Source: an uncultured Cytophagia bacterium (GTDB lineage Bacteria; Zhuqueibacterota; Zhuqueibacteria; Thermofontimicrobiales; Thermofontimicrobiaceae). From it: 64,000 bases of DNA. The stretch lies in NCBI GenBank assembly GCA_964605145.1, contig CAZSBG010000003.1:55028-119027 (forward strand), in the 5' to 3' direction. Shown here piece after piece: positions 125 to 63,999 of the stretch. Within the stretch, counting starts at the first letter, position 1. Each line of letters starts with the position of its first letter. Below the pieces are notes generated by a model. The model was not told the origin of the DNA, did not search any database, and saw only the letters and a program-made list of their open reading frames with translations. The position numbers were made by a program, and so were the translations under genes.

Positions 125-724
125 TCACTTCAGTTTGTACATCATTAATGTAATCAGCGAAAAAAAGAAAATTGTCGAAAAAATATAACAGGGCATGAAC
201 AAACGAATGCTCAGCAAACCGCTCTGAATTAAAGGACTGATAATTACGGCAACAAAATAAATCATCACGCCAAGCGTGACGCCGGCGCCCTGGGTCATAT
301 CGAAATTTTGCTTTTCATCATAAATTTCAGATGTCCTTTCAATCCGCATAATCAATGCAATATAAATCCAGAACAGCGCATACGGAAGAATAATCAATTT
401 CCATAAAACGCTGCGTACAAACAGGGGATCGAATACAAATATCGATACAAGGCCAAAGCCGCCAAATACAATGCCAAGAATATTCAAGATGACAAAAACA
501 CCTTCATTCATTTCAATAACTTTTGCCAATTTCGTTTTTGGGATAAAATAATACAAAATACCCGCAATTACTAAAACAACAACAACGAAAAGTCCCCATC
601 CGCTTGTTTCTATTTCATCTTCAAGATGAATAAAGACTTCCGAAACAATTCCGCCTCCGATTAAAATTAAAAATAGCAAGACGCCGAATAATTTGTTGAT
701 TGTGGCACTCATAATTCCCTCCAA
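125..724 (-). CDS. Hypothetical polytopic membrane protein (about 6 predicted TM helices), co-oriented with and 6 bp downstream of an XRE regulator
   Basis: 199-aa ORF that is almost entirely hydrophobic helices (LLFLILIGGGIV, FVVVVLVIAGILYYFI, ILGIVFGGFGLVSIFVF, VMIYFVAVIISPLI). Low GC (~40%) compared with neighbours. An XRE HTH gene paired with a membrane protein is a common two-gene unit. Confidence 0.5.
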   Translation of the reverse strand: MEGIMSATINKLFGVLLFLILIGGGIVSEVFIHLEDEIETSGWGLFVVVVLVIAGILYYFIPKTKLAKVIEMNEGVFVILNILGIVFGGFGLVSIFVFDPLFVRSVLWKLIILPYALFWIYIALIMRIERTSEIYDEKQNFDMTQGAGVTLGVMIYFVAVIISPLIQSGLLSIRLFMPCYIFSTIFFFSLITLMMYKLK

Positions 725-730
725 TAAAAT

Positions 731-955
731 TTATTTGTTCTCGTTTTCTGGCTCTTCAATAAGAAAGAACACCTCCTCCACCGGCTTGTTGAAAAAACGC
801 GCCAATTTCAAAGCCAGCAACGCCGATGGCACGAACCGTCCTTTTTCCAGCGAAAGAATCGTCTGCCGTGTCACTCCCACGGCTTTGGCGAGATATTCCT
901 GGGACATCTCCCCCCTTTCGAAGCGACACCGCCTGAGTGTGTTTCCTAATTTCAA
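731..955 (-). CDS. XRE-family (Cro/C1-type) helix-turn-helix transcriptional regulator
   Basis: 74 aa. The motif SQEYLAKAVGVTRQTILSLEKGRFVPSALLALKLARFF is a canonical HTH_3 / XRE family sequence. Confidence 0.8.
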   Translation of the reverse strand: MKLGNTLRRCRFERGEMSQEYLAKAVGVTRQTILSLEKGRFVPSALLALKLARFFNKPVEEVFFLIEEPENENK

Positions 956-1340
956 TGAATCACCTCCGATCTGGTGAATGGTTTACTGGTGAGTGGTGAA
1001 TTGTAAATTGGTAAATGGTAGCATCGTGGACTGGCCTTTTCATTTTAATTAAATTGATACGGTGAGATTTGGTAACATATTTCATACTAATTGTAAATCA
1101 AACTGTACACAATATACAAATGTAATTAGAAAATGTCAAGCTTTTTTTACATTTTGTTAGAATTATCTTACTTATAAAAATAGTATTTGATGATAAGATT
1201 TATTTGTGAGAAAATTGAAAATGAAAAGACGCAGGACTTATTGCTGAAGAGATGGTCAAAATCCAATCAAAAGTTGCAGGTGTGAAAAGTTTTATTGAAA
1301 AATGAAAAACGATTGTTCATTCATGTACGAGATAATAGAA

Positions 1341-1571
1341 TCAACCGCCGCCGACTAATTGAAACAGCTTCACCGAGTCTCCCTCCTTCAATGCATGAGT
1401 TAGCGGAACGCGCGAGCCATTCACCGCCACAAACGCGATTTCTTCCTTTGGCACACTCACCTGGCCAAGCACCCGAACGAGTGCGGATTTCTCTGGGAGG
1501 GTCAGTTCCAGCTCGGGATTGCCGTTGTTATACTTTTTCAGACTGCCGTGAAATGTTAGTGTTATTTTCAT
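1341..1571 (-). CDS. MoaD/ThiS-family ubiquitin-like sulfur carrier protein (C-terminal Gly-Gly)
   Basis: 76 aa with the beta-grasp size and a C-terminal ...KLFQLVGGG diglycine, typical of MoaD/ThiS. GC is native (~52%). Confidence 0.6.
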   Translation of the reverse strand: MKITLTFHGSLKKYNNGNPELELTLPEKSALVRVLGQVSVPKEEIAFVAVNGSRVPLTHALKEGDSVKLFQLVGGG

Positions 1572-2178
1572 TAATTTCAGCCCATTATTTGAGATAAATT
1601 TTATTTGCCTTGAATTGAAAGAGAAAAATACAAAAATTGTAGAAAGATGTCAACCTGATTTTTAATTTTTTGACATAGATAGCTTATGGCACATCAATGA
1701 ATAAAGCGAAAAAATTAGATTGATCAGGAGTAATGTTAAACTATTTATCATATAATTTTTAAAACTATTGATTCATTCAATATTTTTTATCATAATGATG
1801 TGTTGTCACGAGTAACTTTACTGCCCCCTCTTTAGTTTTTTCTTATGCAGGTTTTTCTCGTTACACATTTTTAATTTGATGTTCGAAATTACAATTCAAA
1901 ACCAAAATAGTAACTATTCAGCCACCGAGTCACAAAGAACACGGAGAAAAATTCAATCAAAAATTGCCATCATTTTTTGTAAATAGGATTGCCAAACAGT
2001 GAATACTATCTTTAAAAAGTTACATACATTAAAAACGAATTCATATTTATGCGAAGAATACGTATTGCATCATGTTATTCTGTTTCCAAATAGTTAATGA
2101 AAATATATTTCAATCACATTATGAGACACACTTTCCGAAAATAATTCATGAGAATATCTCTGAGCCCTCTGTGTCTCG

Positions 2179-3600
2179 GTGGCATTTTTCATAAGGCTGA
2201 ATAGTTACCCAAAATATAAGGATGATATTATGGAGACTTTTGAATCCAAGGTCTCTGATATTTTTAAAGAAAATCCCAGGCTTGCCAGAAAAATACCTGT
2301 TGTCATCCGGCAACTTTTCAAAGAATCCGAGGCTGAATTTCGAAGACGAATAAACAAAGCCTCAGAGCATGAACAACAGGTCGAAATGATGAAACTTTTC
2401 GACATCCTATTCATTGATTACTATTTTGATGAGATTGAAGACAACTTTTTAGCCTGGGTCATCAAAAATTATCCGAAGCGATTCACCAGCTCTGAATTAG
2501 AAGAAATGCGGGCACAGGCTTTTTCACATCTCGATTATTATGAAATTCAGGAAGCGATACCGGGAAAGGGAAGCTATTTTAAATCCCTGACTACCAACAC
2601 CGAAGGATTTTTGAAAGATATTTCTTCTTCTTCTGTTTTAGTCAAATGGGATATTCTTTTAGGGCGCTACTATTTTTATCAAGACACATATTTTGCAACA
2701 GGTGCAACCTCTCTATATAGCCAGTCTGATAAGGAATACATTGTAGAACAAATCGAGAAAGCTAAGCAGGAATATTTCGAAGCCAATCCGGAAGCCGACC
2801 ATGCTGAATTCGCTAAAAAACGTTGGGATATTTTTTTCAAGATTGATGACGGCCTGCGCGACAAGGCAAAGAACAAAAAATTCTATACAACATTCGGCGA
2901 GCTTCAATTCTGCGAAGTTCGGTTCAATATAAAAAATTTCCAGGCAATATTGAATACGATTGATAATTTAGACGAATTCGAGTTCGTCGAAGCCAAGACG
3001 ATCCGAAGAGGAAAGAAGAAAAGATTAAATCGCTTCGAGTTTGATTGGCTTACACTGGGAATAGAGGACGAATTGAATCCCATCCGCGTAACTGAATTTA
3101 ATAATGGACTCATGTTAAAAACAGAGCGATTGGACGCCGACGGAAATAAAATCAGAAATGAAACAATAGGGACTTTTTATCTGGATGTATTTCTGGGCCG
3201 GCTCGAAACAAAATCGCTGGAAATTGCCGAGTTTGCCAGGCACCATTTTGTGGATATTTTTGGGGGAGCGCTCACGTTCAAGCGCATTAACAAGTTGGAT
3301 ATTGATATCAAATCAAAACTCGAAGCACAATCCGATGAGACTGAACCTCTTCCTGTAGGTGACATAGATCCATCGCTGAAAGCCCGCGTAGAAGAACAGC
3401 TATTTCTGGATACGCTGGACGAAAAAATTCCCATGTTGAACAACAAAACGCCCCGCGAAGCCAGCCAAATCCCGGAACTGCGCCCCATACTGATAGACTG
3501 GCTCAAAAGCCTGGAAAACATAATGGAACGAAAGCAAAAATCAGGAGAATCCACGGCTTCCATTGAAAAGATAAAGAGGGAGCTGGGTATTGATTGGTGA
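2179..3600 (+). CDS. Hypothetical protein, compositionally atypical (low-GC) orphan gene
   Basis: 473-aa uninterrupted ORF, one of only two plus-strand genes. GC is ~38-40% against ~55% for its neighbours. It is flanked by a 580-bp AT-rich noncoding stretch upstream and a hairpin-rich 356-bp intergenic region downstream. It is rich in charged and aromatic residues and I recognise no motif. Confidence 0.5.
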   Translation: MAFFIRLNSYPKYKDDIMETFESKVSDIFKENPRLARKIPVVIRQLFKESEAEFRRRINKASEHEQQVEMMKLFDILFIDYYFDEIEDNFLAWVIKNYPKRFTSSELEEMRAQAFSHLDYYEIQEAIPGKGSYFKSLTTNTEGFLKDISSSSVLVKWDILLGRYYFYQDTYFATGATSLYSQSDKEYIVEQIEKAKQEYFEANPEADHAEFAKKRWDIFFKIDDGLRDKAKNKKFYTTFGELQFCEVRFNIKNFQAILNTIDNLDEFEFVEAKTIRRGKKKRLNRFEFDWLTLGIEDELNPIRVTEFNNGLMLKTERLDADGNKIRNETIGTFYLDVFLGRLETKSLEIAEFARHHFVDIFGGALTFKRINKLDIDIKSKLEAQSDETEPLPVGDIDPSLKARVEEQLFLDTLDEKIPMLNNKTPREASQIPELRPILIDWLKSLENIMERKQKSGESTASIEKIKRELGIDW

Positions 3601-3780
3601 GGGGAGGGGACACGAACCAATCTGATTCATTACAATCAGAACCTGACATTTACAATTCTATGCTAAATATTTTTAGCATGATCGGTTAGTCAAATCCGCC
3701 CTTTTTCCCTTTTGGGAGCAATTCCCTAAAGTTGTTAAAAACCGTTGAAACGGTTGTAATTGGTTTATTTGTCATTGACC

Positions 3781-3853
3781 ATCACCATAATAAATTATGG
3801 TGTTGATTTGATTCAACTGAGATTGAGCGAACACCACAATTTATTGTGGTGTT
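3781..3853. repeat. Two related palindromes ACACCA(Y)AAT-NN-ATT(R)TGGTGTT, 49 bp apart
   Basis: ATCACCATAATAAATTATGGTGTT (3781-3804) and AACACCACAATTTATTGTGGTGTT (3830-3853). Neither is followed by a U-tract. Confidence 0.45.
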
Positions 3854-3956
3854 AACTGCATAATAAAATGAGAAATAATTTCAGCAGTTTTCAGTAGTGC
3901 TATTTCATAAAGAAAAATAGGAATTTATGGGACTTGCACCCGTCCCTTTTTATATT

Positions 3957-5756
3957 TTATTTGGAAATATCCCCCAAAATTTCATCCAACTGCAACTCGC
4001 GCAGTTTCTCCGGCGTGGGAATGCCATTTTCATCCCAGCCCATGAGCTGGTAATATTCGGCGCGCATTTCGTCCAATTCCACTACGTGGCCTTTGGCCGG
4101 ACCTTTTGCAAGCGGCTCGCTCAGGCAGCGTTTGGGAAGGGTATCATCCTTTTTGGTGAGTCCTTCTCGCACATTGAACATGCGGGCCAGGGTGGTCACG
4201 CGCTCCCCCACTTTTTCCAGTTCGCGCGGATTTTTATAATCAAACCCGGTACATGGATTGACCATCTGCCACACCTCTTTCAGCGTGAAGCCGAACTTGG
4301 TGAAATAGCAAATAATGGCGCAGTCGATGACCGCGGTGTCCAACTGATTCATCTTGAACAACGACGCTTTGCCGGAGACCTCCAGCGGATCGGCGCCGCC
4401 CATAAGCTCGCTCAGCGGCGAACCGTGGAGATGACACGCGCCCCGTTCGGAAATGGCGTAGCTGAGTCCCACACCTTTGGCCCCGCGCGGCAGATAACCG
4501 GGCATTTCCAGGCCCTTCACGTGCATGGCATATTCTTCACTGCCGGGATAATTTTTGCTGAATTCGCGCACGCCTTTTTCCAGTTTCGCACCGATTCCTT
4601 CCCCGGCACAGATTTTTTTCGTCAGTTCAATGAGCGCTTCGCTGCTGCCCCATGTAGCCTCAATGCCATCGAGGTCAGCATTTGACAATATTTTGCGCTG
4701 ATAAAGTTCCATGACAAAACCGATAATCACGCCCACGCTGATGGTATCGATACCGAAATCATCGCACAGGTGGTTCACCTTGATGATAGCCTCGCGATCA
4801 GTGACGCCGCAGTTACTGCCCAGCGCGAAAATGGTTTCATACTCCGGGCCGTCCACGCGCATGCCCAGTTTTTTGTGCTGAGCGATCTTTGTGCAGCCAA
4901 TGCCGCAGCCGTAACACGCAGCCGACTCGTTCCAGTATTCATCGGTCCATGTTTCCCCCCACAATTCCTGATGGCCTTCGAATTGTCCTTCCTGGAAATT
5001 GCGCGTCGGCAATCCCCCGGCCGCGTTGATGAGCTCGACGATATTGGCAGTGCCGTGCTCCTTCATCCGCTGAATCTGCGAGCTCATGCGCAGCATTCGA
5101 TTGGCGACCCACACCATCTCCTGGAACAGAGCAGGGTCTTTCACAGCCACCGCGCCGGTGCCCCGAACTGCCACAGCTTTGAGATTTTTCGAGCCCATAA
5201 CAGCGCCGGCGCCGCCGCGTCCGGCAGTGCGCAGATCGCAGAAAATTCCTGCGATGGGCGCCATACGCTCCGCTGCCTGGCCTATCACCGCGGTTTTGAA
5301 CTCCTTGCCATATTTTTCCGTCAGCTTTGTCGTTGCTGCCATGGTGCCGGTTCCCCAAAGATCGCCGGCATCGTCCAGCCGAACCGAGTCGTTATCGATG
5401 ACCAGCACTTTTGGCGAAGCAGCCCGGCCGGTCATCACGATGGCGTCGTAGCCGGCCCATTTCATGGTCTGGCCGAAAAAACCACCGGCATAGGAATCGA
5501 GAATGGTGCCGGTGGCCGGACTTTTGGTGAATACGCCCAATCGCCCGGCAGTGGGCGCTGTGGTGCCGGTGAGCGGGCCGACCGCAAAAATGAGCGGGAC
5601 TTTAGGCGCGAGCGGATCGGTATGCGGCGCCAATTCGTTGTACAAAATCAAGCTGGCCAAACCCTTTCCGCCAAGCACCAGCCGCATGACTTTTTCATTC
5701 AATTCTTCAGTTTTAATCGTCCCGGTCGAAAGATCGACGCGCAGTATTTTATTCAT
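3957..5756 (-). CDS. aor: Tungsten-containing aldehyde:ferredoxin oxidoreductase (AOR family)
   Basis: AOR-family N-terminus (MNKILRVDLSTG...) and the conserved 4Fe-4S cysteine ligand cluster (ESAACYGCGIGCTKI), ~600 aa. The ORF extends to 5807, but the AOR-like start (MNKILRVDL) is the internal Met at 5756. Confidence 0.85.
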   Translation of the reverse strand: MNKILRVDLSTGTIKTEELNEKVMRLVLGGKGLASLILYNELAPHTDPLAPKVPLIFAVGPLTGTTAPTAGRLGVFTKSPATGTILDSYAGGFFGQTMKWAGYDAIVMTGRAASPKVLVIDNDSVRLDDAGDLWGTGTMAATTKLTEKYGKEFKTAVIGQAAERMAPIAGIFCDLRTAGRGGAGAVMGSKNLKAVAVRGTGAVAVKDPALFQEMVWVANRMLRMSSQIQRMKEHGTANIVELINAAGGLPTRNFQEGQFEGHQELWGETWTDEYWNESAACYGCGIGCTKIAQHKKLGMRVDGPEYETIFALGSNCGVTDREAIIKVNHLCDDFGIDTISVGVIIGFVMELYQRKILSNADLDGIEATWGSSEALIELTKKICAGEGIGAKLEKGVREFSKNYPGSEEYAMHVKGLEMPGYLPRGAKGVGLSYAISERGACHLHGSPLSELMGGADPLEVSGKASLFKMNQLDTAVIDCAIICYFTKFGFTLKEVWQMVNPCTGFDYKNPRELEKVGERVTTLARMFNVREGLTKKDDTLPKRCLSEPLAKGPAKGHVVELDEMRAEYYQLMGWDENGIPTPEKLRELQLDEILGDISK

Positions 5757-5842: not shown

Positions 5843-6970
5843 CTACAAACCAACAAATACTTCAAAATTTTCCTGTGTAATAAATTGGAATTCGCTGTTT
5901 GGATAATTTTCTATAAATGAATTCGGTATTTTCTTTTTTGCTTTTTGCCATTTTATTTCAAACGCATGAAGCATACCACCTTCTTCTTCAATATAGTCGA
6001 TTTCCTGTTGTTTATGCGTTCTCCAAAAATACGTATTCACGAAATAATCAGTATTCGAATTTCGTTTCAATCGTTCACTAATAATGAAATTTTCCCATAG
6101 CTGGCCTTTATCCTGTCTAAGATGCATTGGATTTAAATTATTTATCAATGCATTTCGAACTCCTGTATCGTAGAAATATATCTTTCGAAGACGTTTTAAT
6201 TCATTTCTTATATTTCGACTAAATGGGGAAAGTCTAAATATCACGAATGCCTTCTCTAATAGCTGAATATAATTCGAAACCGTTTCTTTTGAAACACCTA
6301 ATAAATTGGACAATTCTTTAAACGAGACTTCCTGACCTATTTGTAAAGCAAGCGCAGTCAAAAGTTTTTCAAGCATTTCAGGACGTCGAATATCCTGGAA
6401 TTGAAAAACGTCTTTGAAAAGATAACTCGAAGTCAATTCTCTTAATAATTTTGAACTTTCTTCTGGTTTCGTTTCTACTTCGGGGTACATACCAAATATT
6501 ATTTTGCGCTCAAGAATTCTTCGAATTTCTATGAGGGAATACTTTTGAGTCAATTCAATTAAGGATAATGGGAACAGTTGAAATTCGTATTTCCTTCCAG
6601 TCAAAGGCTCTGTTACACTATTTGATAAATCAAAAGACGACGACCCGGTCGCTATAACCTGTACATCAGGAAAATTATCAACCAGAAGCTTCAAAGTAAG
6701 CCCGATATCCGGCACTCGCTGAGCTTCATCGATGAAGATAATCTTTCTGTTGCCTAAAAGGAGTTGCAAATTTGTTGACGTGGCATTTGTTAAACTGTTT
6801 CGAATATCTGTTTCATCGCAATTCAAAAAAAGAGTATCATCCATGGGATAGTTCTCCATGATTGTCTTAATCATGGTTGTTTTCCCAACCTGCCGTGCAC
6901 CATAAATTATAATGCACTTTTGTTTAAAGAAATGCTTTTCAATTGTATTTTGAATATTTCGAATAAACAT
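5843..6970 (-). CDS. AAA+ superfamily ATPase (COG1373, DUF4143-type)
   Basis: Walker A motif GARQVGKTT and Walker B motif IIFIDEAQ, 375 aa, with the COG1373/DUF4143 architecture. GC is very low (~36%), so the gene appears to be a foreign insertion between the AOR and aldolase genes. Confidence 0.75.
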   Translation of the reverse strand: MFIRNIQNTIEKHFFKQKCIIIYGARQVGKTTMIKTIMENYPMDDTLFLNCDETDIRNSLTNATSTNLQLLLGNRKIIFIDEAQRVPDIGLTLKLLVDNFPDVQVIATGSSSFDLSNSVTEPLTGRKYEFQLFPLSLIELTQKYSLIEIRRILERKIIFGMYPEVETKPEESSKLLRELTSSYLFKDVFQFQDIRRPEMLEKLLTALALQIGQEVSFKELSNLLGVSKETVSNYIQLLEKAFVIFRLSPFSRNIRNELKRLRKIYFYDTGVRNALINNLNPMHLRQDKGQLWENFIISERLKRNSNTDYFVNTYFWRTHKQQEIDYIEEEGGMLHAFEIKWQKAKKKIPNSFIENYPNSEFQFITQENFEVFVGL

Positions 6971-61071: not shown

Positions 61072-61683
61072 TCACTGCGATCTTTCCCGATACAATCCTT
61101 TGTTATCAATATATGTTACGACATCATGTGGAATCATATCTGAAATGGTTTTTTCAGCGGCGATTCTCTCTCGAATCGATGTTGAAGAAATATCGATTAA
61201 TGGCGTTTCAAGAATTTTGACGTGATTTGCAATAAAGCCTGGCACCGCTGACAAGTCTGCTCCTGGTCGTTGGAACACAACAACTGTGCATCTTTCGATG
61301 ATTTCGTCAGGACATCGCCAGAAGGGAAGATCGATCAGGCTATCGCCGCCAATTAAGAGAAAAAGCTGGTTCGGACCCAGCCCAAATTTATCACGATAAT
61401 AATTAATCGTATCAATCGTATATGAAATTCCCTTACGAAGAATTTCAACATCCGATATTTCAAAATCTGGGTGATTTTCAATTGCAAGTTGTGTCATTTT
61501 TAAACGATGTTCAGCGCTTGCAATAACAGCACCAAGCTTGTGTGGAGGATTCGCTGCAGGTATAAAGATGATTTTATCCAGAGATAATTTATTTTTTGTC
61601 CATTCGGCAATCTTCAAATGACCATTGTGAACTGGATCGAAGGATCCCCCAAATAGGCCAATTTTCATTTTTCCACTATCCAT
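61072..61683 (-). CDS. nadD: Nicotinate-nucleotide adenylyltransferase
   Basis: IGLFGGSFDPVHNGHL with the (H/T)xGH motif; 203 aa. Confidence 0.85.
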   Translation of the reverse strand: MDSGKMKIGLFGGSFDPVHNGHLKIAEWTKNKLSLDKIIFIPAANPPHKLGAVIASAEHRLKMTQLAIENHPDFEISDVEILRKGISYTIDTINYYRDKFGLGPNQLFLLIGGDSLIDLPFWRCPDEIIERCTVVVFQRPGADLSAVPGFIANHVKILETPLIDISSTSIRERIAAEKTISDMIPHDVVTYIDNKGLYRERSQ

Positions 61684-61738
61684 TCCGATCGAAAAAAGCA
61701 GATCTCAATTCTACATCATGGTAATAGAAAAGAGCTGC

Positions 61739-62512
61739 TCAGCCTTTCTGTTCCTCTGTCTTCATTTTGGACAATATATTTTTTACACGAGAAATTTTTG
61801 CGCTGTCCGGGTATTTTTCCAAATAAAGTTGATAGTATTTTGCTGCTTCGTCCATATCGCCGGCTTTCTGATACGCTTCTGCTTTGCCAAACAACGCTTT
61901 TTCTGCATATTTTGTATCGTAATAATTATCCAGCACATGATCGTAATATTTTATCGCGGCCGTGTATAACCTTCTCTTACGATAGGACATAGCATTTTCA
62001 TAATCTTTTCGGGCAAGTTTCTCCCGACATTTCGTCATATATTTATTGGCCTCAGGGACAAGGTCGCTGTTTGGATAGTCCTCGAGAAACCGCTGAAATT
62101 CCTCAATTGCTTTTTGCGTATTCGTTTGATCGAGAGAATATTTTGGCGACAGTTGATAATTGCTCATTGCAATTTTATACCGAGCGTCATCAACATATTC
62201 ACTATTTGGAAATATGCGCGTCAATTTTTGATATTCAGCGCTTGCCAGAATATATTCTTTTAAATTATAGTGGCACTCTCCTAAGTAAAATTGGGCGCGG
62301 TCACTTACGGTACTCCCCGGAAAATTCAGCGTAATTATTTTAAATTCAGTTTTTGCATCGAGATAATCGCCATCTTTGAACATTTTCTCAGCGATTTTCA
62401 TTCGTTCATCTGCAGTTAATGTGGCTTTAATTCGGTTTCTGCCACAAGACGTAAGAATCGCTATTAACATAATAAAGAAAAGTAAGTATTGTTTTCTCAT
62501 CACAAGTTTCAT
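61739..62512 (-). CDS. bamD: Outer membrane protein assembly factor BamD-like TPR lipoprotein
   Basis: Lipobox (LTSCG) and TPR repeats with a BamD-like pattern (...DRAQFYLGECHY...YPNSEYVDDARYKIAMSNYQ...). Confidence 0.7.
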   Translation of the reverse strand: MKLVMRKQYLLFFIMLIAILTSCGRNRIKATLTADERMKIAEKMFKDGDYLDAKTEFKIITLNFPGSTVSDRAQFYLGECHYNLKEYILASAEYQKLTRIFPNSEYVDDARYKIAMSNYQLSPKYSLDQTNTQKAIEEFQRFLEDYPNSDLVPEANKYMTKCREKLARKDYENAMSYRKRRLYTAAIKYYDHVLDNYYDTKYAEKALFGKAEAYQKAGDMDEAAKYYQLYLEKYPDSAKISRVKNILSKMKTEEQKG

Positions 62513-62523
62513 AAAATAATCCT

Positions 62524-63162
62524 TTAACTACTGCGCAATCTAAAAAAGAGATAAATAATGCTAAGTGTCGTCGCTATCACTACAGAAGGTTCAATGTATT
62601 TCTTTAATCCGGGATTTTGTGGAATTACGGCCTGGGTAAAATTGAAACTTTTGTTTTGAAGATTCTTTATTTTGTCTTTTTGAACCGTATCGCGATACGT
62701 CTCCGAGAATGTATCAAATGCCAATACTTTTCCGGTACGTGATTCAACAATTCGAACAGAAACAACAAGTTCAAATATTCGATCTAATTCATCTTTCTCC
62801 GCTCCTACCTCATACTTTACCTCAAGCGTCATTATCTGGAATTTCACTCCGTAATCGCAGCACGCAGAATCATTGACCTGATAGAGATAAATTTGGTCGA
62901 TACCGATTTTTGAGCATTCTTGCATCATCGCATTCTCGATCAGCCAATTTCCCTCAGCCTGCTTTTTCTGAGGTTGTATCGAGATGGAAATTGATGAATC
63001 CAGCGTGACCTGCTCCAATATTTCATGCACAGCTTTTGCAGCCAGTTGCTTGAATACTGTTAAATTTTTCACTGGTGTATCACTGGCTCCCAATGCCATA
63101 ACCGGGTAAATGAGGAAAAGAACGGGTAATCGGGTAACAATTGATTTGACTAATTTATTCAT
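62524..63162 (-). CDS. Hypothetical secreted/membrane-anchored protein
   Basis: N-terminal signal peptide and a C-terminal hydrophobic helix. No motif recognised. Confidence 0.4.
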   Translation of the reverse strand: MNKLVKSIVTRLPVLFLIYPVMALGASDTPVKNLTVFKQLAAKAVHEILEQVTLDSSISISIQPQKKQAEGNWLIENAMMQECSKIGIDQIYLYQVNDSACCDYGVKFQIMTLEVKYEVGAEKDELDRIFELVVSVRIVESRTGKVLAFDTFSETYRDTVQKDKIKNLQNKSFNFTQAVIPQNPGLKKYIEPSVVIATTLSIIYLFFRLRSS

Positions 63163-63270
63163 AAAATAATCAACAATTAATACTCATATAGTTTAATAAA
63201 GTTCCCGGTGAATATTCAGCGCTGATCGATTCCTTTCGCATTTAGCATTGTGTCAGGTGCGGCAATGAAT

Positions 63271-63999
63271 CTATAAACGAATAAGCAGAGAAAGCACATG
63301 CCAATGCTGTTCCTTTGTTGCCTGTTTTTGGTAGACAAAAGAGTAATTTAATAAAAACTGAGAATGGCTGAATCGATTTTGTTTTTGATAGAAAATATTG
63401 GAATCGATAAGACCGATCCCACCGGAAATTACGTGATTTTTTGAGAATCGTTCTCTATAATAGCCCCCGCGCAGCGCAAAAATTGAAAACACATTTTGTT
63501 CAAATCCAAAATGAGCCTCCCGCACTGTTTTCCGTTTGTCTTCGGTTAAATTCCGAAAATCGAAGGCAATTAAAGTGCTTGAGGTCGGGCGGTAAGCCAC
63601 GCCGATATTCATGGTCTCATCGGACATCCGCTCCACTGGCATTCGAATATCAGGAATATTTTTCGGGAAATCTACATAAGCCAGTCCAACATTCAATTTC
63701 TGCGACGGCTTCAACAAAATTCCATAACTGAATCCCAGATCCTGTTGCGTCTGACTATCTATTTTGTTCACATACAGACTGCCGGAAAACCCGAGGGATA
63801 CGCGTTCCGCCAGCTTAATGCGTGTATAAAAAGAGTGATAGCTATTTTTCCAGATATCGTTATTCTCAAAAAATTTTTTTTGCGCTGCGAGAACGCTGTT
63901 ATCAAGTATTTGTTCATGGAAAACAAGTGCCATATCCAAATATCGCCCGCTAAATGCAACGCTCTTGACAAATAACGCGCTTGATTTCAGAATATCCAC
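63271..63999 (-). CDS. Hypothetical protein (may extend beyond the window edge)
   Basis: ORF running to the window end; unknown function. Confidence 0.35.
   Translation of the reverse strand: MDILKSSALFVKSVAFSGRYLDMALVFHEQILDNSVLAAQKKFFENNDIWKNSYHSFYTRIKLAERVSLGFSGSLYVNKIDSQTQQDLGFSYGILLKPSQKLNVGLAYVDFPKNIPDIRMPVERMSDETMNIGVAYRPTSSTLIAFDFRNLTEDKRKTVREAHFGFEQNVFSIFALRGGYYRERFSKNHVISGGIGLIDSNIFYQKQNRFSHSQFLLNYSFVYQKQATKEQHWHVLSLLIRL

Follow-up and report, generated by a model that had tools for sequence, protein, structure and literature searches.

Analysis of a 64,000-nt stretch of contig CAZSBG010000003.1 (referred to below as the window), derived from an uncultured bacterium of the Zhuqueibacterota, revealed that the plus-strand gene at positions 2230–3600 is an accessory gene, intact and maintained by selection, for a soluble, acidic protein of 456 aa. 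As judged from profile comparisons, this protein is a member of the widespread, uncharacterized DUF7986 superfamily that lacks the SEC-C motif; the new entity described here is this SEC-C-less subfamily, the superfamily itself having already been catalogued. The unusual flanks of the gene are not part of a "system" and consist mostly of small mobile insertions. The overall explanation that we favour, and hold with about even confidence, combines an intact accessory gene of this superfamily and flanks made by insertion with a product that would act as an adaptor or sensor through contact with other proteins.

The 456-aa gene and its flanks

The open reading frame (ORF) at 2179–3600 (plus strand), described in an initial annotation as an orphan gene for a 473-aa protein, is present and intact, but the length of its product had to be corrected to 456 aa. 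Every full-length homologue (452–460 aa, apart from a single gene call stretched to 479 aa) opens with the sequence M-[AS]-[ST]-F-E-S-K at the position equivalent to ATG 2230, which is the true start codon. The GTG codon at 2179 is located inside a mobile insertion, the 299-bp miniature inverted-repeat transposable element (MITE) at 1910–2208, and adds 17 spurious codons to the ORF. The coding sequence defined in this way (stop codon at 3598–3600) is backed by the homologues, by purifying selection, by hhalign and by an AlphaFold2 model. A ribosome-binding site (TAAGGATGA; 2217–2225, plus strand), which is identical in the related locus L001, ends 4 nt before the ATG, with its AAGGA Shine-Dalgarno core (2218–2222) placed 7 nt upstream of this codon.

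Comparison with an 86%-identical relative gave identities of 91, 94 and 82% at codon positions 1, 2 and 3, respectively, and it may therefore be concluded that the gene is under purifying selection. As originally noted, it is the only large plus-strand gene in the first 34 kb of the window: no other ORF of at least 100 aa was found before position 34.9 kb, with the exception of a shadow ORF (1295–1597, plus strand) that runs opposite a ThiS-like gene. The low GC content ascribed to the gene was borne out in part. With a GC content of 0.41 and a GC content at third codon positions (GC3) of 0.43, it falls below most of its neighbours (GC3 of 0.65–0.69 in the adjacent aldehyde:ferredoxin oxidoreductase (AOR) and aldolase genes, and of 0.50–0.60 in most genes of the window), but the deviation is only moderate, because approximately ten further window genes have equally low GC and GC3 values. 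In every locus examined, the GC content of the gene was slightly lower than that of its flanks.

The gene is preceded by 633 bp of AT-rich DNA, whose non-coding stretch has a GC content of 28.5%. The long AT-rich flanks reported initially were thus confirmed as regards the upstream DNA, but they proved to be composite, consisting of conserved intergenic DNA and two insertions that are absent from the relative. The conserved AT-rich intergenic region (1572–1909) separates the divergent ThiS-like gene (1341–1571, minus strand) from the 456-aa gene. It shares 88.1% identity with L001, compared with 79.6% at the 4-fold degenerate sites of the gene, and is therefore under mild constraint. Matches to sigma-70-like promoters were detected within it in both directions (1768–1796, plus strand, and 1653–1625, minus strand), and no stable fold was predicted for this region (z = −0.27 relative to shuffled sequences).

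The adjoining segment, 1910–2208, is a MITE. This 299-bp non-autonomous element is bounded by perfect 12-bp terminal inverted repeats, GTAACTATTCAG (1910–1921) and CTGAATAGTTAC (2197–2208), and is flanked by an 8-bp target-site duplication, CCAAAATA, the left copy of which occupies positions 1902–1909, while the right copy was read from the sequence at 2209–2216. The orthologous sites in three related loci (L001–L003) are empty, each with one copy of the target sequence and no counterpart of the element. Deletions in these loci, instead of an insertion in the window, are unlikely, given the duplication of the target site and its length of 8 bp. The MITE (fold z = −3.7 relative to shuffled sequences) is placed 13 bp upstream of the ATG, with the native promoter region on one side and the ribosome-binding site on the other.

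The same pair of termini, with a spacing of 294–324 bp, was found on 105 metagenome contigs (L035–L139). Exact 8-bp flanking duplications accompany 47 of the 107 elements considered (counts for other repeat lengths were 0–2), and 61 unrelated clusters of interior sequence were distinguished among these elements, spanning GC contents of 0.23 to 0.62. Twenty more elements of other sizes were identified, 12 of which have perfect termini and an exact 8-bp duplication. The 12-bp termini bound elements of 100–757 bp, some of them nested (e.g. L045:10235–10335 and L042:2093–2336), and the 8-bp target duplications are AT-rich. In the loci fetched, no transposase is located between any pair of termini (the genes enclosed by the longer pairs are housekeeping ones), and no autonomous parent of the MITE was found among them.

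The element at 1910–2208 resembles other bacterial and archaeal MITEs in its terminal inverted repeats, target-site duplication, empty site, many copies in many genomes and lack of a transposase; unlike MITEs in general, its 12-bp termini are common to elements with unrelated interiors. The GTAA start of the termini and the 8-bp duplication are perhaps reminiscent of the IS66 family. A literature search retrieved no paper containing the terminal-repeat string. This class of MITEs, with identical 12-bp ends in very different hosts, is a useful lead. Some of the MITE-bearing contigs hold archaeal-type genes (3-dehydroquinate synthase II), and the hosts are bacterial and probably archaeal.

On the other side of the gene, the 356-bp region 3601–3956 was predicted to fold at −102 kcal/mol, compared with −72.8 ± 4.9 kcal/mol for shuffled sequences (z = −5.9), and all four hairpins initially annotated in it (3660–3679, 3741–3756, 3780–3805 and 3830–3853) are present. 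Its proximal part (3601–3696, plus strand) is common to the window and the relative and includes the hairpin at 3660–3679; two positions in the left arm of its 8-bp stem are changed in the relative, leaving two mismatched bases there. The following segment of approximately 245 bp (3697–3945, approximate limits) is an insertion that is missing in the relative. It was delimited by re-alignment to L001, upon which the AOR C-terminus was found to be conserved, and by a search for terminal repeats, which detected imperfect inverted repeats at 3714–3730 and 3924–3941. The insertion holds three of the four hairpins, namely that at 3741–3756 and the two 22-nt palindromes within 3780–3805 and 3830–3853, whose motif has only these 2 occurrences in 64 kb (0.08 expected). 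A terminator scan additionally identified a terminator-like stem at 3929–3946. This palindrome-rich insertion is probably a second small mobile element. A scan of positions 900–4100 against Rfam revealed no RNA family.

The early suggestion of a mobile-element remnant therefore applies to the flanks (the MITE upstream and the likely second element downstream), but not to the gene, which is intact and under purifying selection. These findings carry a practical warning: the MITE lengthened the ORF by 17 codons and, together with the second insertion, produced flanks that looked suspicious.

Membership of the DUF7986 superfamily and predicted structure

Contrary to the initial annotation, the gene is not an orphan, since 40 close homologues and approximately 1,800 superfamily clusters were identified. 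Most of the 40 homologues are full-length (41–86% identity), and they occur in KSB1, Zhuqueibacterota, Calditrichota and Marinimicrobia-type genomes. A scan of 185,579 species representatives (one genome per species; the scan relies on exact patterns) detected the subfamily in 16 species, which belong to Zhuqueibacterota (64% identity), KSB1, Calditrichota and Neomarinimicrobiota or are represented by a few metagenome-assembled genomes (MAGs) with other labels. An exhaustive profile search (hmmsearch) yielded 1,817 representative clusters, defined at 50% identity, with E<1e-3, of which 563 had E<1e-10. Alignment with the distant relatives using hhalign gave a probability of 100% (E = 3e-57) over residues 52–456 and 392 columns.

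The superfamily architecture is [SEC-C knuckle]-DUF7986-[MbcA/ParS-like C-terminal domain], corresponding to Pfam PF02810, PF25948 and PF09722. The SEC-C knuckle is located directly N-terminal of the common core in 52 of the 56 multi-domain relatives; 35 of the 62 short relatives also have the knuckle. This zinc knuckle, CxC...C(C/H), is absent from the window protein, whose residues 1–214 are cysteine-free and which contains one cysteine overall. Precomputed matches to PF25948 (DUF7986) cover the core of the relatives and were assigned to 8 of the 40 close homologues; the entry of the window protein has none. A local Pfam scan detected PF25948 neither in this protein nor in the eight homologues with the precomputed match. 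PF09722 (Xre_MbcA_ParS_C, DUF2384) was matched by 25 of the 56 multi-domain relatives, at the position of the C-terminal motif of the window protein (best E = 1e-8); scores of 28–33 bits were obtained for the module of relatives, versus a cut-off of 24.5. The superfamily is fused to TPR or HEAT repeats only, in proteins of approximately 1,270 aa (TPR/HEAT-SEC-C-DUF7986), and no enzymatic domain was found anywhere in it.

For the window protein itself, searches of Pfam, NCBIfam, PHROGs, PADLOC and PDB sequences gave nothing significant. The best sub-threshold library matches were RelB-like (E = 0.02) and lambda Ea22 (E = 0.08–1). The initial statement that the protein has no recognizable motif was upheld in this sense, for Foldseek as well as for the sequence libraries. 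Proteins annotated as "SEC-C metal-binding domain-containing" or "DUF2384 domain-containing" are homologous to it over the core (approximately residues 52–456), and both are uncharacterized. In the SEC-C/DUF7986/PF09722 proteins, as in the window protein, the barrel is followed by the helical spacer, then by the alpha/beta domain and finally by the C-terminal TPREA...LEN module. Unlike these relatives, the window subfamily has a conserved helical N-terminus of about 40 residues, no SEC-C and no TPR/HEAT extension, and, unlike the wider superfamily, it is confined to KSB1, Zhuqueibacterota, Calditrichota and Marinimicrobia-type MAGs. In the literature, no papers were found on DUF7986 or on SEC-C in combination with DUF2384, and no published characterization of the superfamily was found.

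The AlphaFold2 model of the 456-aa protein (pLDDT 86.8, pTM 0.76) predicts the following order of regions, all encoded on the plus strand: (i) a helical N-terminal region (residues 1–98; 2230–2523), cysteine-free and at the position of the relatives' SEC-C, in which conservation within the subfamily is highest over the first ~40 residues; (ii) a five-stranded OB-like (cold-shock/S1-like) barrel (residues 99–164, modelled at 100–163; 2524–2721); (iii) a helical spacer (residues 165–214); (iv) an alpha/beta domain (residues 215–357, modelled at 217–355; 2872–3300), which gave a pLDDT of 89.8 when modelled alone and includes a conserved basic beta-hairpin (residues 250–274); (v) a disordered linker (residues 363–375); and (vi) a C-terminal helical module (residues 381–456, with helices spanning 381–452; 3370–3597). 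The last of these carries the motif IPxLNNxTPREA...WLKxLEN, which in hhalign aligns column for column with the PF09722 segment of the relatives.

Foldseek analysis of the full model against PDB and BFVD revealed no global match, and the local matches were limited to OB folds. The barrel was matched to CSD, eIF1A and RPA with probabilities of 0.87–1.0 over approximately 67–81 aligned columns (70–80 residues), and S1 was also matched. The alpha/beta domain alone had no solved-structure match in PDB (best E = 0.014, TM-score ≤0.39), which makes it a useful lead. The superfamily, with its approximately 1,800 clusters on chromosomes and many plasmids, pairs a confidently predicted fold without a solved match with a domain otherwise known from antitoxins.

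As the protein (pI 5.2) and its barrel (pI 5.0) are acidic, only the hairpin 250–274 being basic, their sequence favours protein binding over nucleic-acid binding. RNA binding via the OB fold was also considered, and is weakened by the acidity of both the barrel and the whole protein.

Possible modes of action

We tentatively propose, from the sequence comparisons and the predicted model, that the protein may be a non-enzymatic adaptor or sensor acting by protein–protein contact. In RES-Xre, MbcA and ParS antitoxins, PF09722 is the domain that binds the toxin. Just as the homologous domain of MbcA and ParS plugs its toxin, the C-terminal module would hold a partner protein in a clamp, and the strongly conserved N-terminal 40 residues may serve for docking in place of the SEC-C knuckle, leaving the DUF7986 core (barrel and alpha/beta domain) as the putative ligand- or client-sensing part. 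The setting of such an adaptor could be toxin–antitoxin or anti-phage, or ordinary cell physiology. The likeness to the antitoxins of the RES-Xre, MbcTA and ParST systems lies in the C-terminal helical module, which in the relatives passes the Pfam threshold for the toxin-binding domain; unlike these antitoxins, the window protein is four to six times larger. No N-terminal Xre-type helix-turn-helix was detected in it with Pfam or NCBIfam, and no RES or ADP-ribosyltransferase toxin gene adjoins the gene in the window or in approximately 25 related loci.

Several observations weigh against the proposed adaptor or sensor and the overall explanation of which it is part. The window protein has no direct Pfam match to PF09722 or PF25948 (E≤1), its C-terminal-domain profile reaches ParS (6D0H) in PDB at E = 0.13 only, and no characterized homologue supports any activity. 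Several acidic and basic residues are invariant in the subfamily alignment, and the alpha/beta domain might conceal an enzymatic site. As regards the flanks, the downstream insertion is single-copy in the data examined and its terminal repeats are imperfect only. The MITE has pushed the native promoter region 307 bp from the gene, which may therefore be poorly expressed in this genome. As accessory genes go, this one is ordinary, and no surprising function has been demonstrated for it.

A rival explanation, which we regard as rather unlikely, is that the gene constitutes a single-gene abortive-infection (Abi) or anti-phage system, whose product would recognize a phage protein and respond by killing the cell or halting its growth, the mode of action suggested for Rugutis. 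[quoted passage not shown] The two are alike in their description, both being single genes for a product with a fold lacking a PDB match, and the plasmid location and SEC-C of Rugutis recur among the relatives of the window protein; the 456-aa window protein itself differs from Rugutis in length and in lacking SEC-C. Plasmid searches revealed that many unrelated SEC-C families exist (e.g. transglutaminase-like proteins of Bacillus and proteins of Enterococcus in which SEC-C is C-terminal).

A defence role would also fit the C-terminal domain of antitoxin type, the plasmid location of relatives and the PDC-S01 candidate defence ATPase apparently inserted 2.2 kb downstream in the window, as well as the toxin–antitoxin genes that adjoin some relatives. 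In L007 the order is Phd-PIN-[gene], with a gap of 1 nt; in L006 the gene has BrnT on its upstream side and DarT-DarG on its downstream side; L032 has PemK-[423-aa relative]; on Acetobacteraceae plasmids, a 456-aa relative follows VapBC or PIN (including VapBC-[456 aa] in Komagataeibacter) or is placed between insertion sequence (IS) copies. However, neither a PADLOC match at E≤1 (PADLOC-DB 2.0, which predates Rugutis) nor a recognizable effector domain was found, no relatives were found in the phage genomes searched, and synteny is stable in close relatives. Moreover, metabolic or housekeeping genes (RNase HII, GGT, LarA, glycine cleavage) make up most of the neighbours in the 15 loci taken from species representatives, on which grounds an enrichment of defence or toxin–antitoxin neighbours was rejected, and one relative overlaps the start of a phosphoenolpyruvate (PEP) carboxylase gene by 4 bp.

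In a more elaborate version, which we consider improbable, the DUF7986 core would be a new sensor–effector fold, forming a self-contained abortive-infection or toxin-control module that is checked by its own C-terminal domain, is comparable to CapRel (a fused toxin–antitoxin) and is evolutionarily linked to Rugutis. The comparison with Rugutis is a useful lead: should Rugutis turn out to belong to the superfamily, an experimental handle on all of it would already be available.

About as likely as a defence role, although still doubtful, is that of a housekeeping-type scaffold or co-factor outside genetic conflict, e.g. an adaptor that acts together with TPR/HEAT proteins in secretion, in protein quality control or in ribosome-associated processes. 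SecA uses the SEC-C knuckle, which the relatives also have, to bind SecB and ribosomes. Such a role would agree with the exclusive fusions to TPR/HEAT and the adjacent TPR/HEAT gene in L150, with the often metabolic or housekeeping contexts (rnhB synteny in four loci, PEP carboxylase), and with the strongly conserved length and approximately 50% identity across phyla. It is less easily reconciled with the patchy distribution (16 hits among the 185,579 species representatives in the exact-pattern scan), the plasmid-borne and IS-flanked relatives, the GC content below that of the host flanks in every locus examined and the lack of SEC-C in the window subfamily.

Maintenance of a mobile element, for instance by an unrecognized plasmid replication or stability protein, appears very improbable. 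The circular 10.8-kb pENS3 and the 9.8-kb p9b3 carry a 456-aa relative but no recognizable Rep gene, and on a Fukatsuia plasmid a relative is located just upstream of repB and repA; against this, the protein is acidic, neither a winged helix nor any other signature of DNA binding was seen in it, KSB1-type genomes have the gene on the chromosome and in synteny, and the large plasmids carrying it have their own typed replicons. A replication initiator, an idea derived from the small Komagataeibacter plasmids, was rejected, as neither iterons nor an AT-rich origin adjoin the gene in pENS3.

Genomic neighbourhood

The 86%-identical homologue (P0002) is encoded in L001–L003, where the gene order (membrane protein, XRE, ThiS-like, [gene], AOR, aldolase) is the same as in the window, and the ThiS-like neighbour recurs at the 64%-identical Zhuqueibacterota locus. 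Of the horizontally acquired accessory DNA proposed initially, the accessory character was retained (the distribution is patchy and the neighbours vary between distant lineages), but a recent gain is unsupported, as synteny is kept in the 86%-identical relative. Similarly, in the XRE-plus-membrane-protein pair described as low-GC, this applies to the membrane protein gene (GC 0.36) but not to the XRE gene (GC 0.50). The two genes of this pair (125–955, minus strand) share 95.6% and 93.9% nucleotide identity with those of the relative, compared with 89% for the 456-aa gene and AOR.

No partner gene is conserved across the loci examined. In four loci, two of which are labelled Neomarinimicrobiota, the gene precedes RNase HII (rnhB)-UPF0102, and the other neighbours include GGT, OPT transporter, LarA and glycine-cleavage genes. 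At L148:4001–8316, a 452-aa DUF7986 relative follows a HAD hydrolase gene and has the 4-bp overlap with the PEP carboxylase start mentioned above; this apparently operonic, metabolic arrangement is kept in a second contig (L149). At L150:1630–5425, a 744-aa TPR/HEAT gene is located directly upstream of a SEC-C-DUF7986 gene, which represents a split form of the fusions.

A plasmid search with the SEC-C-bearing query P0107 returned 667 matching records, most of which share just the SEC-C motif with YecA/SecA-type proteins; the superfamily core was matched on several dozen plasmids (Methylomonas, Legionella, Sphingobium, Sinorhizobium and others). The small plasmids pENS3 of K. rhaeticus (L030) and p9b3 (L028) are made up nearly completely of toxin–antitoxin modules (PIN, CcdAB, Phd-VapC, AbrB-Doc) together with Fic, an integrase and the 456-aa relative. 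No replication gene was recognized in either plasmid, and no MOB-suite replicon type was assigned to them.

Within the window, a gene at 5843–6970 (minus strand; GC 0.34) encodes a 375-aa AAA_14 + DUF4143 ATPase that matches PDC-S01 (E = 3e-161), a candidate defence family of PADLOC. It is situated between the AOR and aldolase genes, where L001 has no gene call, and was apparently inserted in the window. At the other end, four consecutive genes (61072–63999, minus strand) have GC contents of 0.37–0.41 and GC3 values of 0.32–0.42, well below the average of the window.

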